DNA from: an uncultured archaeon
Lineage (GTDB): Archaea > Iainarchaeota > Iainarchaeia > Iainarchaeales > CSSED10-239
Length of the DNA stretch: 64,000 nucleotides
Assembly (NCBI GenBank): GCA_964586355.1
Contig: CAZPGO010000030.1
Span: 20,421 to 84,420, forward strand
Reading direction: 5' to 3'
Part shown: positions 9,175 to 15,250 of the stretch, in pieces
Layout of the letters: the number at the start of each line of letters is the position of its first letter
How positions within the stretch are numbered: position 1 is the first letter of the stretch
Made by a program: the position numbers and the translations under genes
Notes under the pieces: model-generated
The model's database searches: none
What the model was told of the DNA's origin: nothing
What the model saw: the letters and a program-made list of their open reading frames with translations, nothing else

Positions 9175-10005
9175 TCATATGTTATCTAAAGGATTTTGAA
9201 TAGTTTTTAGTTTATTTGTATTAACTTTAGTATAAATTTGTGTGGTATTTAAGTTAGCATGTCCTAGTAGTTGTTGAATATATCTAATATTTACATCATT
9301 TTCTAATAAATTAGTAGCAAATGAGTGTCTTAATGTATGTGGACTAATTTTTTTATCAATATTTGATTTACTAGAATATATTTTTAAAAATTTTTGAATA
9401 GTGTCTACTGAAAGTGCATTACCTGAATTATTACAAAATAAATATTCTGATTTTATTTTTCTATTTTCTAAATATGTTTTATAATCTTCTACCCATTTTT
9501 TAGAAAGAATAATTATTCTATCCTTATTTCCTTTTCCACTAATAACATTACCAGTAAACTCATCAAAATTTAAATTACTTATTTTCATATTTACACATTC
9601 TGATATTCTAACACCTGTTGAAAACATAAATTCTACTATTAGTTTATTTCTAGTATTATCTATAACAGAAATAAGTTCTTTAATTTCTTTAGGTGTTAAG
9701 ACAATTGGTATTTTCTTAGCTTTTTTTGGCAGTTTTATATTTATTAAAATATTACTTTTTAAAAATTCAATATAAAAATGTTTAATAGCAGAAAGTACAA
9801 GATTAAGTGTTGCAGATCCTACTTTTTTTTCTGTTTTTAAATATGATAAAAAATTTATAATATCATCATCATTTATTTTATCTAGATCTTTTTTAACATA
9901 TTCATAAAACATATTTAAATATATCATATATGTATCAATAGTTCTTTGACTATAACCCATAATATTTAGTTCATTTTTGAATTTTTTTAATAGTATTTCT
10001 GACAT
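9175..10005 (-). CDS. xerA: Tyrosine recombinase, XerA/XerC/XerD-like integrase (276 aa).
   Basis: The N-terminal SAM-like core-binding domain is present. The catalytic R...HxxR...Y elements match a tyrosine recombinase catalytic domain: RISE, HTLRHSFATNLL and LGHANLNTTQIYTKV. Confidence 0.8.
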   Translation of the reverse strand: MSEILLKKFKNELNIMGYSQRTIDTYMIYLNMFYEYVKKDLDKINDDDIINFLSYLKTEKKVGSATLNLVLSAIKHFYIEFLKSNILINIKLPKKAKKIPIVLTPKEIKELISVIDNTRNKLIVEFMFSTGVRISECVNMKISNLNFDEFTGNVISGKGNKDRIIILSKKWVEDYKTYLENRKIKSEYLFCNNSGNALSVDTIQKFLKIYSSKSNIDKKISPHTLRHSFATNLLENDVNIRYIQQLLGHANLNTTQIYTKVNTNKLKTIQNPLDNI

Positions 10006-10356
10006 ATAAATAATAATAGCTCTATTTTCTTTATAATCTTATTGTTTTAAGCCGAAAAAGTGCTTTGTTTTTCAAACCTTTTTGACTCTTTTTTTTTCTA
10101 GTTTTTTAGTTTTTTTAATAAATTATATTAAACAAGTGTTATTTTGGCTTGTTTTATTTATACATAAATTTATTTTTTAGATCTTTTTTTCTTCTAACCT
10201 TTTATATTTTCTAGCTTTTTTCTAATTTATACATAAGTTAGTAAAACAAACAAAACCACTTATAAAATGATTGACCTTCTATTAATTATACTTTTTTTAA
10301 AAAAAGAAATATAATGTGATCAAATATAAATCCCAAATACATACTCAACAGAAAAG

Positions 10357-12353
10357 ATGAAAAAATCACTTATAATATTTATAAAATCAAATTAGCAATA
10401 TTAAAAGCACTTGATGCAATTGAGAATCCTGATATAGATCTTGCTGATTTTATTACTAAAAAAGTTGATACTGTTTTAGTTAATGAATATTTTAATAAAA
10501 AGATTTTACCTAAGATTGATGATATTCAAAATATTATTGAAGATGTTTTAATTAAAGAAGGATTAACTAAATTAGTAAAAGCTTATGTTATTTATAGAAA
10601 ACAACATGATGATTTTAGGCAATTTTCTAAATTAATAGATAGTGTTAATGCTGTTGAAAGTTACATAAACATTTCTGATTGGCAAGTAAAAGAAAATAGC
10701 AATATGGATTATTCATTACAAGGTCTAAATAATTATTTATCTACTAAAATAATTTCTGATTATTGGATAAAAAAAATATATCCTCCAGAAATAAAGGAAG
10801 CACACGAAAAAAGGCAATTACATATACACGATCTAAGCACATTAGGACCTTATTGTGTAGGTTGGGATCTACAATTTTTATTAAGAAATGGTTTTAAGGG
10901 AGGTCTTGGTAAAATTGTTGCATCTGCTCCAAAACATTTTGATATTGCATTAGGTCAAATAGTTAATTTCATTTATACTCTTCAAGGAGAAGCAGCAGGT
11001 GCTCAAGCTTTTAGTAATTTTGATACTCTTTTAGCTCCTTTTATTTTTTATGATAATCTGGATTATAAAAGAGTAAAGGCAGATCTTGAAAAATTTATTT
11101 ATAATATGAATGTTCCAACAAGGGTTGGATATCAAACTCCATTTTCAAATATAACCTTAGATCTAACAATACCATCAACTCTAAAAAACGAATCAGTAAT
11201 AATTGCAGGAAAACCTATGGACAAAACCTATGGGGAATTCCAAGAACAAGTTGATATGTTTAATAAAGCAATTTTAGAAATTTTTTATGAAGGTGATGCT
11301 GGAGGAAACATGTTTTCATTTCCAATACCTACAATAAATGTTACTAGTGACTTTAATTGGGATAGTGATCTTGCAAATAAAATAATTGATCTAACCATAA
11401 AATATGGTACCCCTTATTTTGCAAACTTTGTAAATTCTGATATGAAACCAGAAGATGCTAGAAGTATGTGTTGTAGATTAAGATTAGATAATCGTGAGCT
11501 TCAAAAAAGAGGAGGAGGGTTATTTGGATCTAATCCTCTAACAGGATCTATTGGTGTTGTAACAATTAACCTTGCACAGATAGGTTATCTTGCAAAAACA
11601 AAAGAAGAGTATTTTGAAAGACTTGGTTATTTAATGGATCTTGCTAAAAAATCATTAGATCTAAAAAGAAAGATTGTTGAAAAGTATACAGAGGATGGAC
11701 TATACCCTTATTCTAAATACAATCTTTCACAGATACATGATAGATTTGGATCTTATTGGAAAAATCATTTTTCTACTATTGGTCTACTTGGTATGAACGA
11801 ATCTGCTGTTAATTTTTTAGGTGAAGGCATATATACAGAAAAAGGTCAGGCTTTTGCTATTGAAGTTATGGATTTTATGAGAGATAGAATACAAAAATAT
11901 CAAGAAGATACAGGAAATTTATATAATCTAGAAGCAACTCCAGGAGAGAGTACTACTTATAGATTTGCAACTTATGATAAAAAAGAGCATCCTTCAATAA
12001 TTGTTGCTAATGAAGAAAATTATCAACAAGGTGCTCAGCCATATTATACAAATTCAACACAATTACCAGTAAATTATACAACAGATATTTTTGATGTCTT
12101 GGATTTACAAGACGATTTACAATGTAAGTACACTGGTGGAACAGTTCTTCATTTTTTTATTGGTGAAAAAAAACCTTCTAGAGAAGCAATAAAATCATTA
12201 ATAAAAAAAATCTCTAAAAATTACAAATTACCATACTTTACATTTAGTCCAACATTTTCAATTTGTCCAAAACACGGATATATTTTTGGAGAGCATGAAT
12301 ATTGCCCACTTTGTGATAAAGAAATAGGGTATATAGAAAAGGAGGAAAAGTAA
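10357..12353 (+). CDS. nrdD: Anaerobic ribonucleoside-triphosphate reductase NrdD (class III RNR). It has an N-terminal ATP-cone and a C-terminal Zn ribbon. There is an apparent +1/-1 frame problem in an A6 run just after the ATG at 10357; the ORF-track start at 10704 is internal.
   Basis: The frame is open from 10320 to 12353. Upstream of the track start it encodes ...LNRKDEKITYNIYKIKLAILKALDAIENPD...LVKAYVIYRKQ, which is an ATP-cone. The CxxC...CxxC motif is CPKHGY...CPLCDKE. Confidence 0.8.
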
Positions 12354-12508
12354 ATGGAAGCAAATATAGAAGAATTAAAAGCAAAAAGACAAAAATGTGA
12401 AATTTTTTCTAGAGTAGTAGGATATGTAAGAAGAGTAGATGCATGGAATTATGGTAAACAAGCAGAGTTTCATGATAGAAAATTATTTAATACAGATAAG
12501 AAGTAATT
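12354..12508 (+). CDS. Stand-alone NrdD C-terminal glycyl-radical domain (51 aa). It is in the same frame as nrdD, separated from it by a single TAA.
   Basis: MEANIEELKAKRQKCEIFSRVVGYVRRVDAWNYGKQAEFHDRK contains the RV-x-GY glycyl-radical motif and the W-N-x-GK-x-E tail typical of the NrdD C-terminus. Confidence 0.6.
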
Positions 12509-12511
12509 AAC

Positions 12512-13180
12512 ATGGAATTAAGAATAGGTGCAATAGAAAAATTTAGCACAATAGATTATCCTGACAAGATATCTTGTGCTATTTTTTTAAAAGGGTGTAA
12601 TTTTTTTTGTGGTTTTTGTTATAATAAACAACTAGTTTGTAAAGAACTATTGGACACCACTCCTGATCTTCCCCTAGAAGAACTTAAAGAATTTTTAAAC
12701 AAACGTGTTGGCTTAATTGATGCGGTTGTTGTTAGTGGTGGAGAACCAACAATATATGGCGATTCTCTTATTTCTTTTATTAGAGAGATAAAAACAAAAG
12801 GTTATCTAATAAAATTAGACACAAATGGTTCAAATCCAAAAGTATTAAAACAAATAATTTCTGAAAATTTGGTTGATTATATTGCTATGGATTTAAAAGA
12901 TTCTTTTGAAAATTATGATAAATATACTTTTGTTCCTGTTGAAAACATCAAAGAGTCTATTAATTTAATCCTAAATTCCAACATAGCTCATGAGTTTAGA
13001 GTTACCACTCACCCAGAACTAACTTTGGAGAATTTTAATATTTTATTAACTTATGTTCCTGAGCAAAAGGTTCTTGTCCAAGATTTCATGAACACCAATA
13101 CTATAAAAGAATATCCTGATGATTCTAAAACAATTTTTTCACAATTATCAAAAGAGGACAAAAGATATATTTTACGTTAA
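12512..13180 (+). CDS. nrdG: Anaerobic RNR activating enzyme NrdG (radical SAM).
   Basis: The CxxxCxxC cluster is CNFFCGFCYNKQ. It has the GGEP motif (VSGGEPTIY). It lies directly downstream of nrdD. Confidence 0.85.
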   Translation: MELRIGAIEKFSTIDYPDKISCAIFLKGCNFFCGFCYNKQLVCKELLDTTPDLPLEELKEFLNKRVGLIDAVVVSGGEPTIYGDSLISFIREIKTKGYLIKLDTNGSNPKVLKQIISENLVDYIAMDLKDSFENYDKYTFVPVENIKESINLILNSNIAHEFRVTTHPELTLENFNILLTYVPEQKVLVQDFMNTNTIKEYPDDSKTIFSQLSKEDKRYILR

Positions 13181-13204: not shown

Positions 13205-15250
13205 ATGGTTTTTGTAAATACAATAATAAGCAATTCAAATGAAAAAGAAATATTTTCTAAAGAAAAATTAACTATTTTATTATTTGAAAATATGTGTACT
13301 ATTGGTTCACCAAATTTAAATCTTGCAGAAAAACTTTCTTTTTTAATAGTTGATAAAGTTAATGCTAGTTTTTCAGAGTCTATTTCTTTTGAAAAATTAG
13401 ATGATATTATAAAAGAGGTTTTATTTAAAGAAAATCAAAAAGATCTCTTACAAGCATATATTTTTAAGAAATCAAAACCTGATCATTCTTTAATAGATCA
13501 GGAGCTTAAAGAAAACATATTAAAATTTCTTTTGAATTTAAATGATTCTGAAAATATTTCTTCTTATTTAATAAATTTAAATAGTCAATTAAATGAATTA
13601 CAGAATAACACCCATGAAAAAATAAACAAAAATATTTTTGATTATATAAGAGAGGGTTTATTTTACCCAAGTTCAAAGATTTTAAAAAGTATTTCAAAAA
13701 ATCATTATTTTTCCTCCACATTTTCTTTTCATATTGAGGATACCTTAGAGTCTATTTTTGATAATTTGTCTTTATCTAGTAAGCTTCAAAAACAAGGTCT
13801 CTCAATATCAATTGATTTAAGTAAAATAAGATCTCAAAAAGAAAAAATAAAATCTATTAATGAAAATGCTTGTGGACCTATTAAAGTTGCAAATTTATTT
13901 AGATCTGCAAAGGCTATGATTGGGTACTCTATAAAAACATCTAGTAATGTTTTTTCTATATCTATTGAACATCCAGATATAATCTCTTTAATTAATTATA
14001 ATTTTTCAGAAACCTCTGATAATTTCACAATTTTAGTTCCAAATAGATTTGTTGAAAACTATATGAATAATGAAGACTATGTTATTGAGACTGTTTTTGG
14101 TAATCAAAAAATAACTCCTTCAATAATTTTTGATCTAATTTGTTCAAAAATAGCTATTGGGGAAAAAATAAATCTTGTCTTTGTAGATCTGATGTCTAAA
14201 AAAAACCCAATCTCTTTAGAACAAAAAATTTTTTCAATTTCTTCTGTCGGTTATCAACCAGTAATTGACAAAAGTGGTTTTCTCTCGGGGGTAATTGATG
14301 TTTCAAAATTAGTAAATATTTTAGGAGATGCTAAAACTTTTGATTGGCAAAAACTAAAAGCAATTATTTGGGATTCTGTAGAATTTTTAGATAATCTTAT
14401 TGATTCTTCTAATTATATTAATGATGAATATATGCAAGCGGCAAAAGATTATAGGCAGATCTATTTGTCTATAACTGGTTTTGCTACTCTTTTATCTAAA
14501 CTAAATATTTCCTATAATAGTGATGATGCGATCTTTTTTGCAGAAACTCTATCTAATTTTATATCCTACTATGCAAAGCTAAAATCCACTGAGCTTGCAA
14601 AAGAAAGAGGTCCATTTTTAAAATTCATAAAAAGTAAATATGAACAATCCTCTTTTTCTTTTGAAAAATCTTCTATTCAAAAAACTTTGTTTTCAAATGA
14701 TCTAAGCAAATCTAAAAAATTATTAAATAATATGCCTTTAATTGATTGGGTTGAACTTAGAAATAATATTAAGAAATACGGACTTAGAAACGCAACTACT
14801 TTTGGAATAATTTTTTCTGATTTTTATTCTATTGCAAATGATTCTACTAACTCTGTTAATCCTATTTTGAGTTATAAAAGTACATATCTAATTAATGGTT
14901 ATAAATCAGAAAAAATAAAGAAAGAACTTTCCTTAACTTCCCCAGACATAAATGAAAATTGGACAGAAGAGGAAATTGATTCTTTTTTATCTAATGATCT
15001 AAAAAAGTTGTTTGTTAAAGCCAAAAATATAGATCCTTATTTTTTAATAAGATTACAATCTGTTTTTGAAAAAAATTCTGACGGGCTTACAAATATAAAT
15101 ATTTTTATTACTGATAATTATACAATCTTAGATATAAAGAATCTAATAATCGAAAGTTACATGTTAGGAAATTCCTTATTTTTGCCAGAAAAAATAAATG
15201 GTCAAAATGACTTTAATACAGATAAAAAAACGAAAAAAAATAGTTTATAA
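13205..15250 (+). CDS. Large ATP-cone-containing RNR-like protein (681 aa), possibly a degenerate class II RNR paralog.
   Basis: The N-terminal about 95 aa look like an ATP-cone (FSKEKLTILLFENMC...LQAYIFKKSK, compare a.aYi.yR). An N-x-C-G-x-I loop (NENACGPIKVANL) resembles the RNR thiyl-radical finger loop SNPCGEI but has Pro where the catalytic Glu would be. Confidence 0.35.
   Translation: MVFVNTIISNSNEKEIFSKEKLTILLFENMCTIGSPNLNLAEKLSFLIVDKVNASFSESISFEKLDDIIKEVLFKENQKDLLQAYIFKKSKPDHSLIDQELKENILKFLLNLNDSENISSYLINLNSQLNELQNNTHEKINKNIFDYIREGLFYPSSKILKSISKNHYFSSTFSFHIEDTLESIFDNLSLSSKLQKQGLSISIDLSKIRSQKEKIKSINENACGPIKVANLFRSAKAMIGYSIKTSSNVFSISIEHPDIISLINYNFSETSDNFTILVPNRFVENYMNNEDYVIETVFGNQKITPSIIFDLICSKIAIGEKINLVFVDLMSKKNPISLEQKIFSISSVGYQPVIDKSGFLSGVIDVSKLVNILGDAKTFDWQKLKAIIWDSVEFLDNLIDSSNYINDEYMQAAKDYRQIYLSITGFATLLSKLNISYNSDDAIFFAETLSNFISYYAKLKSTELAKERGPFLKFIKSKYEQSSFSFEKSSIQKTLFSNDLSKSKKLLNNMPLIDWVELRNNIKKYGLRNATTFGIIFSDFYSIANDSTNSVNPILSYKSTYLINGYKSEKIKKELSLTSPDINENWTEEEIDSFLSNDLKKLFVKAKNIDPYFLIRLQSVFEKNSDGLTNINIFITDNYTILDIKNLIIESYMLGNSLFLPEKINGQNDFNTDKKTKKNSL

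Follow-up and report, generated by a model that had tools for sequence, protein, structure and literature searches.

Oxygen destroys glycyl radical enzymes by cleaving the polypeptide chain at the radical glycine. For pyruvate formate-lyase (PFL), small stand-alone glycyl-radical domains are known (GrcA, also called YfiD, in E. coli and Y06I in phage T4), which are activated by the radical-SAM (S-adenosylmethionine) activase of the enzyme and work in trans in the barrel of the large protein. A review (June 2026, PMC13450708) states that formate lyases are the only enzymes for which such spare-part proteins are known, and that it is undetermined whether other glycyl radical enzymes have them. 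Here we describe a comparable small protein, predicted from its gene, for NrdD, the anaerobic or class III ribonucleotide reductase (RNR). It is encoded in a stretch of 64,000 nucleotides (nt) from an uncultured archaeon of the Iainarchaeota (GCA_964586355.1, contig CAZPGO010000030.1; referred to as the window), where the nrdD frame ends before the glycyl-radical domain and an open reading frame (ORF) of 50 amino acids (aa) carrying this domain follows directly. We are confident that this locus encodes a class III RNR consisting of two separately translated polypeptides, the smaller of which is an obligate glycyl-radical subunit.

Three other described systems resemble the locus in part. The open-access literature describes split class II RNRs as well as phage nrdD genes interrupted by introns or inteins. 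In the class II enzymes NrdJa/NrdJb of Pseudomonas aeruginosa and Thermus phage phiYS40, an RNR chain is likewise encoded in two adjacent ORFs; these must associate, with the break parting the barrel from a C-terminal functional module (PMC9669993, PMC3653736). The likeness is architectural, as both pieces in the window match NrdD models only and not the adenosylcobalamin-dependent NrdJ; moreover, NrdJb belongs to another RNR class, carries IscU-like and Zn-finger re-reduction domains rather than a radical cofactor, and has no activase. Phage genes reported as split nrdD (T-even phages, Aeromonas phage phiAS4; Dwivedi et al. 2013) have group I introns, inteins or homing endonucleases as interruptions; they share the label with the window, whose relatives also carry an intein in the core, but the interruptions are mobile elements removed by splicing, or recent breaks at various sites, whereas the window is cut at one conserved domain boundary. 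Fused NrdDs of the NF006126/PRK08270 subfamily have the same core (55-61% identity), the same finger-loop Cys pair, Zn ribbon and RVVGY...WNxGK motifs, and an adjacent NrdG; solved NrdD relatives are those of T. maritima (4COI/4U3E), P. copri (8P2S) and T4 (1HK8). In contrast to these single polypeptides, the chain in the window is cut inside a linker by a stop codon, a Shine-Dalgarno-like motif and an ATG. A stand-alone NrdD radical domain was not found described in the open-access full-text literature.

The split gene comprises the following features in the window.

10704..12353, + strand: catalytic core of NrdD, lacking a radical domain and 549 aa long when counted from the first canonical ATG.
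11469..11474, + strand: Cys-Cys pair of the finger loop (SMCCRLRLD); C256/C257 are invariant in a 68-sequence alignment that includes fused NrdDs.
12264..12314, + strand: Zn-ribbon motif CPKH...CPLC, with which the folded part of the core ends; C521, H524, C534 and C537 are likewise invariant across the 68 aligned sequences.
12341..12345, + strand: Shine-Dalgarno-like GGAGG within the last core codons, 8 nt before the ATG of the small ORF.
12351..12353, + strand: core stop codon TAA, directly before the next start codon; the same junction occurs in L086-L089 (L and P numbers are our handles for loci and proteins).
12354..12506, + strand: gene for the 50-aa glycyl-radical subunit, with the RVVGY motif followed by the WNYGKQAEF tail, matching Pfam NRDD positions 530-562.

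The sequence and the ORF list bear out the preliminary description in that the nrdD frame on the + strand is open until the TAA at 12351-12353, located 12 residues past the Zn ribbon (core C-terminus ...SICPKHGYIFGEHEYCPLCDKEIGYIEKEEK), and that an ATG at 12354 adjoins this stop in the same frame with a gap of 0 nt. The small ORF (MEANIEELKAKRQKCEIFSRVVGYVRRVDAWNYGKQAEFHDRKLFNTDKK) terminates with a TAA at 12504-12506 and thus ends at 12506 rather than at 12508 as initially given, and the putative ribosome binding site, which had been placed 1-10 nt upstream of the ATG, is more precisely the GGAGG noted above. The radical glycine is residue 23 of the small ORF (GGA, 12420-12422), and we take the finger-loop pair C256/C257 of the core to be the thiyl-radical site. 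It also proved correct that the small ORF carries the RVVGY motif and WNxGK tail missing from the core: in Pfam NRDD (PF13597, 562 positions) the core covers positions 6-532 (E 4.6e-173) and the small ORF 530-562 (E 5.9e-9), and in NCBIfam NF006126 (684 positions) the core covers 4-653, with 971 bits versus a cut-off of 548, and the small ORF 648-683. Core and small ORF are complementary, consecutive parts of one family profile, far beyond chance. The core does not end in the RVxGY domain found at the C-terminus of the same polypeptide in NrdD. All NCBIfam matches of the small ORF are NrdD models, and at E <= 0.01 it matches only PF13597 among Pfam families, with no match to PF01228 (Gly_radical, the C-terminal domain of PFL).

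The split is shared by close relatives. A search with the 50-aa peptide yielded 45 protein clusters, all of 44-63 aa and 62-96% identical, some of them annotated from archaeal metagenome-assembled genomes; their alignment shows an invariant RxxxxxxSRxVGxVR...NxGK core with variable ends. The comparison with the nrdD of close relatives that had been proposed in the preliminary description gave a uniform result: with the concatenated core and small ORF as query, the 20 best NrdD clusters (69-100% identity), one of them labelled Candidatus Diapherotrites (a DPANN lineage), all stop shortly after the Zn ribbon. In a 34-codon block of the small ORF the ratio of nonsynonymous to synonymous substitution rates (dN/dS) is 0.02-0.13, with synonymous sites near saturation, and the small ORF is under strong purifying selection. 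The split appears to be old, as judged from its conservation to 69% core identity and beyond. A recent nonsense mutation in an ordinary nrdD, or a sequencing or assembly error, which had been considered initially, might be suspected for a source that is probably a metagenome assembly and for a frame containing two in-frame stops, a TGA at codon 2 of the ATP-cone and the TAA before the radical domain. Yet four independent assemblies (L086-L089) show the same TAA-ATG junction, the split is kept across the 20 core clusters and the 45 small-protein clusters, selection on the small ORF is strong, neither piece contains any other lesion, and the ATG-TGA feature at the ATP-cone is itself conserved with only synonymous changes downstream; these comparative data refute a broken gene or artefact, to which we attach next to no credence.

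The arrangement at the junction varies considerably among relatives. In the nearest non-identical relative (L090) the junction reads TAA-AA-ATG and is out of frame, while L095 shows the in-frame abutment independently; further away in the clade, the core stop (TAA or TGA) is followed after 2, 20 or 44 nt by the small ORF, or the two ORFs overlap by 4-8 nt, again out of frame. Shine-Dalgarno-like sequences (GGAGG, GGGGG or GGTGA) precede the ATG by 6-10 nt in most of the clade relatives examined, regardless of the junction, L091 being without one. We extended this survey to 51 non-redundant split loci, in which the three frame relations between core and small ORF occur 18, 12 and 21 times, consistent with chance, gaps range from -8 to +199 nt, and the core stops are TAA (39), TGA (8) and TAG (4); at one of these loci nrdG separates the core from the small ORF. 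With ATG as the sole start accepted by the script, an in-frame ATG starts all 51 small ORFs, and a Shine-Dalgarno-like motif is present at 27 of them. The RNA at the window junction is unstructured (minimum free energy -5.5 kcal/mol, z -0.51), and Rfam gave no match at E <= 1 either at this locus or in the 12 split loci with gaps of 120-200 nt; a small intron in the gap, for which these searches tested, was not found.

Readthrough or recoding, by which the TAA would be decoded or bypassed usefully often and the functional product would be a fused NrdD, had also been suggested initially, and the single in-frame stop with an immediate continuation in the window and in L086-L089, together with the same abutment in L095, is what it would predict. 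It fails to explain the out-of-frame junction of L090, the gaps, overlaps and other frames elsewhere in the clade, the random frame relations, the initiation codon at every surveyed small ORF and the motif preceding about half of them; furthermore, neither a stable RNA structure nor an Rfam element was found at the junction, and TAA and TGA are ordinary stops throughout the window. We therefore consider readthrough very unlikely as the source of the functional enzyme. Because frame relations are random and gaps vary across split loci, the in-frame abutment in the window is probably a peculiarity of its lineage, best read as termination-reinitiation. An alternative genetic code in which TGA or TAA is read as sense is ruled out, too: 11 of the 79 long ORFs in the window end in TGA, and genuine genes lack internal TGA. 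Public proteins that start with 'MW...' (P0200) or run through TGA (P0204) were produced by gene callers using table 4.

Interruption by an intron, intein or homing endonuclease gene was rejected for the window, where the gap is 0 nt, no Rfam intron is present, and the intein of its relatives is located elsewhere (GYQ|TPF). This intein of about 320 aa, which may include a homing-endonuclease region, is inserted in most relatives between GYQ and TPFSN (window about 11133-11138). Intein-bearing cores are 992-1000 aa long (observed at L001-L005 and L086-L089), whereas the window and a few others are intein-free alleles (675-679 aa), even at 99% identity to intein-bearing copies. The small gene also need not follow the core directly, as in the metagenome locus L164 (3275-4140) it comes third, after the core and nrdG.

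The position of the cut can be deduced from fused homologues. The Zn ribbon of the window core aligns with the Zn site of T. maritima NrdD, ending at K610, where CPVCGK610 leads directly into the radical hairpin AKVDEYMRIVGY. Some fused members of the NF006126 subfamily contain a linker of 20-45 residues at this point (CDxEIGY...(linker)...KRxxCEVYSRVVGY), and the tail of the window core (CDKEIGYIEKEEK) and the head of the small ORF (MEANIEELKAKRQKCEIFSR) align to the opposite ends of this linker. According to this alignment, the break lies in a surface linker between Zn ribbon and radical hairpin. An AlphaFold2 model of core and small ORF as one concatenated chain, calculated with an alignment of 67 fused homologues, reached a mean predicted local distance difference test (pLDDT) score of 85.6 and a predicted template modelling score of 0.87, with pLDDT 82-85 at the junction; a run on the concatenated chain without an alignment gave pLDDT 35.6. 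In the model the small ORF forms a beta hairpin around the glycine (chain residue 572) followed by a helix (pLDDT 82-92), and the closest solved structures are the NrdDs of P. copri, T. maritima, T4 and S. thermophilus (template modelling scores 0.71-0.78). The concatenated pieces are thus predicted to form a complete NrdD fold with nothing missing.

The 5' end of the nrdD frame deviates from expectation as well.

10320..10703, + strand: ATP-cone domain in frame with the core, without ATG, GTG or TTG; NF006126 covers this region.

The ATP-cone codons are preceded by ATG TGA at 10314-10319 (about 129 codons in 10314-10703), and an ATA at 10326-10328 aligns with the start methionine of relatives, to which the ATP-cone is 83% identical. 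L086 and L089 contain the same ATG-TGA-TCA-AAT-ATA, and their differences downstream are synonymous only. Because this feature is conserved and only synonymous changes follow it, the ATP-cone region is probably translated, maybe from a non-canonical start. Public gene calls read through the ATP-cone start with table 4 ('MWSNINPKY...').

Split NrdDs are not confined to the clade of the window. Among the 80 species-representative genomes whose NrdD is most similar, the gene is split in 10 and fused in the rest; the split genomes are mostly DPANN archaea and bacteria of the candidate phyla radiation (CPR), including two unclassified archaea, Micrarchaeota, Azambacteria, Moraniibacteriota and a metagenome-assembled genome of the Elusimicrobiaceae, among others. 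One locus initially flagged as split by our script (L031) turned out to be fused on inspection. Metagenome and viral loci were sampled by rank of similarity to the small ORF; of 80 metagenome loci retrieved with small-ORF patterns, 54 contain a stand-alone and 22 a fused domain. The radical domain is absent from 50 of the 120 NrdD clusters closest to the window protein. A profile of the small protein matched 4,596 of 1.84 billion cluster representatives, 1,169 of them at E <= 1e-10; the best 150 of the 4,596 matches are all 42-149 aa long, 139 begin with methionine, and only one resembles a piece broken off a fused protein. In a neighbour-joining tree of the core C-terminus, too crude for counting events, there are about 14 switches between split and fused states, and the window falls inside a cluster of 20 leaves, all of them split. 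The two-piece NrdD is widespread, and our search of the open-access literature found no description of it.

The small proteins fall into several subtypes: plain proteins of 45-60 aa, proteins with an N-terminal ...GNLxLxDGTVIPxxxR... extension, proteins with a double-CxxC ribbon, and proteins with Cys-rich tails. The double-CxxC subtype (about 90-125 aa) has an N-terminal Zn ribbon of its own although the partner core keeps one; this subtype and the GNLxLxDGTVIP extension were noted at L027, L032, L039, L077, L193, L204 and L239 and in P0146, P0151 and P0169. Cys-rich C-terminal tails (...DCAC, ...ACC, ...CCC, ...CSCGC, ...CSCNC) occur in about 24 of the 150 best representatives, in other lineages (examples are L009, L012, L032, L056, L102, L105, L106, L115, L137 and L163, and P0065, P0066 and P0145, among others); the window protein lacks such a tail. 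These tails are reminiscent of the redox-shuttle cysteines found at the C-terminus of class I and II RNRs.

Stand-alone radical domains are also encoded by viruses. In IMG/VR (L170-L249), stand-alone ORFs of 43-126 aa make up 64 of the 80 best matches and correspond to 51 distinct proteins on contigs with a G+C content of 0.27-0.62. No NrdD core or nrdG was found within 5 kb of any of these 51 phage orphans; for 29 of them, the contig extends at least 3 kb in either direction. Their neighbours include terminases, portal and head proteins, anti-repressors and nucleases, and at L171, L186 and L193 the orphan gene is located less than 2 kb from terminase genes. The matching family in PHROGs is phrog_4132, of unknown function. 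The archaeal virus ANMV-1 (KP703175.1, 25525-25959) encodes a 144-aa version annotated as 'anaerobic ribonucleoside triphosphate reductase', and its authors took this fragment for a complete oxygen-sensitive reductase. The metagenome loci L130 and L148 likewise carry such orphan small genes with no core or nrdG within 5 kb. Phage-encoded versions, known for the GrcA type (T4 Y06I), thus exist for the NrdD type as well, and the phage orphans are candidates for class III RNR 'spare parts' or host-takeover factors. They may be the real counterpart of T4 Y06I and GrcA, and they argue for an NrdD radical domain working in trans.

These orphans also bear on the possibility that the window protein itself is a spare part of the GrcA/YfiD type, that is, a reserve domain for a fused NrdD encoded elsewhere and cleaved by oxygen, with the adjacent core being irrelevant or a second client. 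PFL provides the precedent with YfiD/GrcA and T4 Y06I (PMC13450708), orphan NrdD-type genes without a nearby core do exist, and our view of the genome is limited to 64 kb. Nevertheless, the small gene is located directly behind a core that has no radical domain, a pairing kept in every relative examined. Such a core could not function in the absence of the small protein, but its sequence is strongly conserved (83% identity to relatives, 971 bits to NF006126). A spare-part role is therefore improbable, though less so than readthrough. The stand-alone module proposed in the preliminary description is supported, the small ORF being a conserved and separately initiated gene under strong purifying selection; the analogy to GrcA/YfiD holds only in part because the adjacent core lacks a radical domain, the homology is to the C-terminus of NrdD and not of PFL, and orphans are found on phage contigs. 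The window protein matches PF13597, the C-terminus of NrdD, unlike GrcA, which corresponds to the PFL C-terminus (PF01228); it is also shorter, 50 aa compared with 127 aa for GrcA, whose N-terminal half is disordered. GrcA is a spare for an enzyme that retains a radical domain of its own, whereas the core in the window has none, which would make the small protein an obligate subunit.

For this two-polypeptide enzyme we propose the following mechanism. The core, the small ORF and nrdG would be transcribed as one operon, and the small ORF would be translated from its own ATG, which ribosomes would reach either via the GGAGG located 8 nt upstream or through termination-reinitiation at TAA|ATG; in the latter case the subunits would stay near a ratio of 1:1. 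NrdG would abstract a hydrogen from Gly23 of the small subunit and thereby install the radical, much as GrcA and Y06I are activated by the activase of their enzyme. The hairpin of the small subunit would then occupy the barrel beside C256/C257, as the fused domain does in ordinary NrdD, and its radical would generate the thiyl radical with which nucleotide reduction starts. Two benefits of the arrangement are conceivable. A free radical domain might be directly accessible to the activase and would not have to swing out of the barrel; in addition, after cleavage by oxygen, a piece of 50 residues could be replaced rather than a chain of 680 residues (about 1,000 with the intein).

The two-gene architecture and its age, the purifying selection, the independent start signals, the cut in the linker and the complete fold of the concatenated chain are the observations on which this interpretation builds. 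Several points weigh against it. The non-covalent assembly of the pieces and their activation by NrdG are inferred from homology, and the structural model is biased towards a fused-like fold, since its input was the two pieces joined into one chain together with an alignment of fused homologues. Since the ORFs abut in frame in the window, a minor fusion product of readthrough is possible, and as the view of the genome covers 64 kb, a second, fused nrdD might be encoded elsewhere. The ATP-cone without a canonical start codon keeps a small probability of a pseudogene alive. Finally, the benefit under oxygen damage is speculation, and neutral fission at a tolerant linker, the null alternative, gives the same pattern.

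The genes next to the split nrdD are consistent with a functional pathway in that the downstream NrdG, as described initially, is intact.

12512-13180, + strand: nrdG, radical-SAM activase; TIGR02495 (NrdG2) with 176 bits versus a cut-off of 131, and Pfam Radical_SAM.
13205..15250, + strand: divergent class II-like RNR of 681 aa; Pfam Ribonuc_red_lgC (7e-51), with an RNR barrel and a weak ATP-cone match below the Pfam cut-off.

The nrdG gene starts 5 nt past the small ORF, and its product contains the motif CNFFCGFC (CX3CX2C). The class II-like RNR scores under all NCBIfam class II cut-offs and far below every one for NrdJ or NrdA (e.g. 186 bits versus 961); it appears to be a divergent family whose cofactor is uncertain and represents operon context rather than a part of the split. 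It is co-oriented and syntenic in L001-L005 and L086-L089. In the genomic contexts of three small-ORF clusters we observed a conserved order of opposite-strand integrase, NrdD core, small ORF, nrdG and class II-like RNR, which ends with CDC48 on the opposite strand, one or two small ORFs after the class II-like RNR. In the window, a tyrosine recombinase of the XerC/D type at 9175-10005 (- strand) is located upstream of nrdD in divergent orientation, and it is found at the same place in all clade relatives examined; given this conserved position, it is probably a chromosomal Xer recombinase rather than the integrase of a mobile element. The window has a G+C content of about 26% and is archaeal by its gene content, as it encodes the large subunit of DNA polymerase D in addition to CDC48. 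A sigma-70 scan detected 29 sites (37 expected) and no terminators, but is uninformative for an archaeon.

Taken together, the radical domain of the anaerobic RNR is routinely encoded as a gene of its own of about 50 residues, and phages carry this gene alone. It is conceivable, although we put the chance slightly below even, that these genes represent a large unrecognised class of class III RNRs, made of two polypeptides, one of them a free, exchangeable radical subunit of about 50 residues; such enzymes would be common among DPANN archaea and CPR bacteria, and phages would exploit them by carrying the small subunit alone. If true, autonomous glycyl-radical cofactors would for the first time extend beyond the formate lyases, and no earlier glycyl radical enzyme would be known in which a separate protein obligatorily supplies the radical domain. 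The question of whether small radical proteins exist beyond formate lyases becomes directly testable, and the small subunit could serve as a minimal substrate provided by nature for work on the recognition and opening of the radical domain by activases. There is also an annotation trap, as cores without a radical domain and fragments of 50 aa share the label 'anaerobic ribonucleoside-triphosphate reductase'. For the organisms themselves, the split bears on deoxynucleoside triphosphate synthesis in tiny-genome lineages living under fluctuating oxygen.

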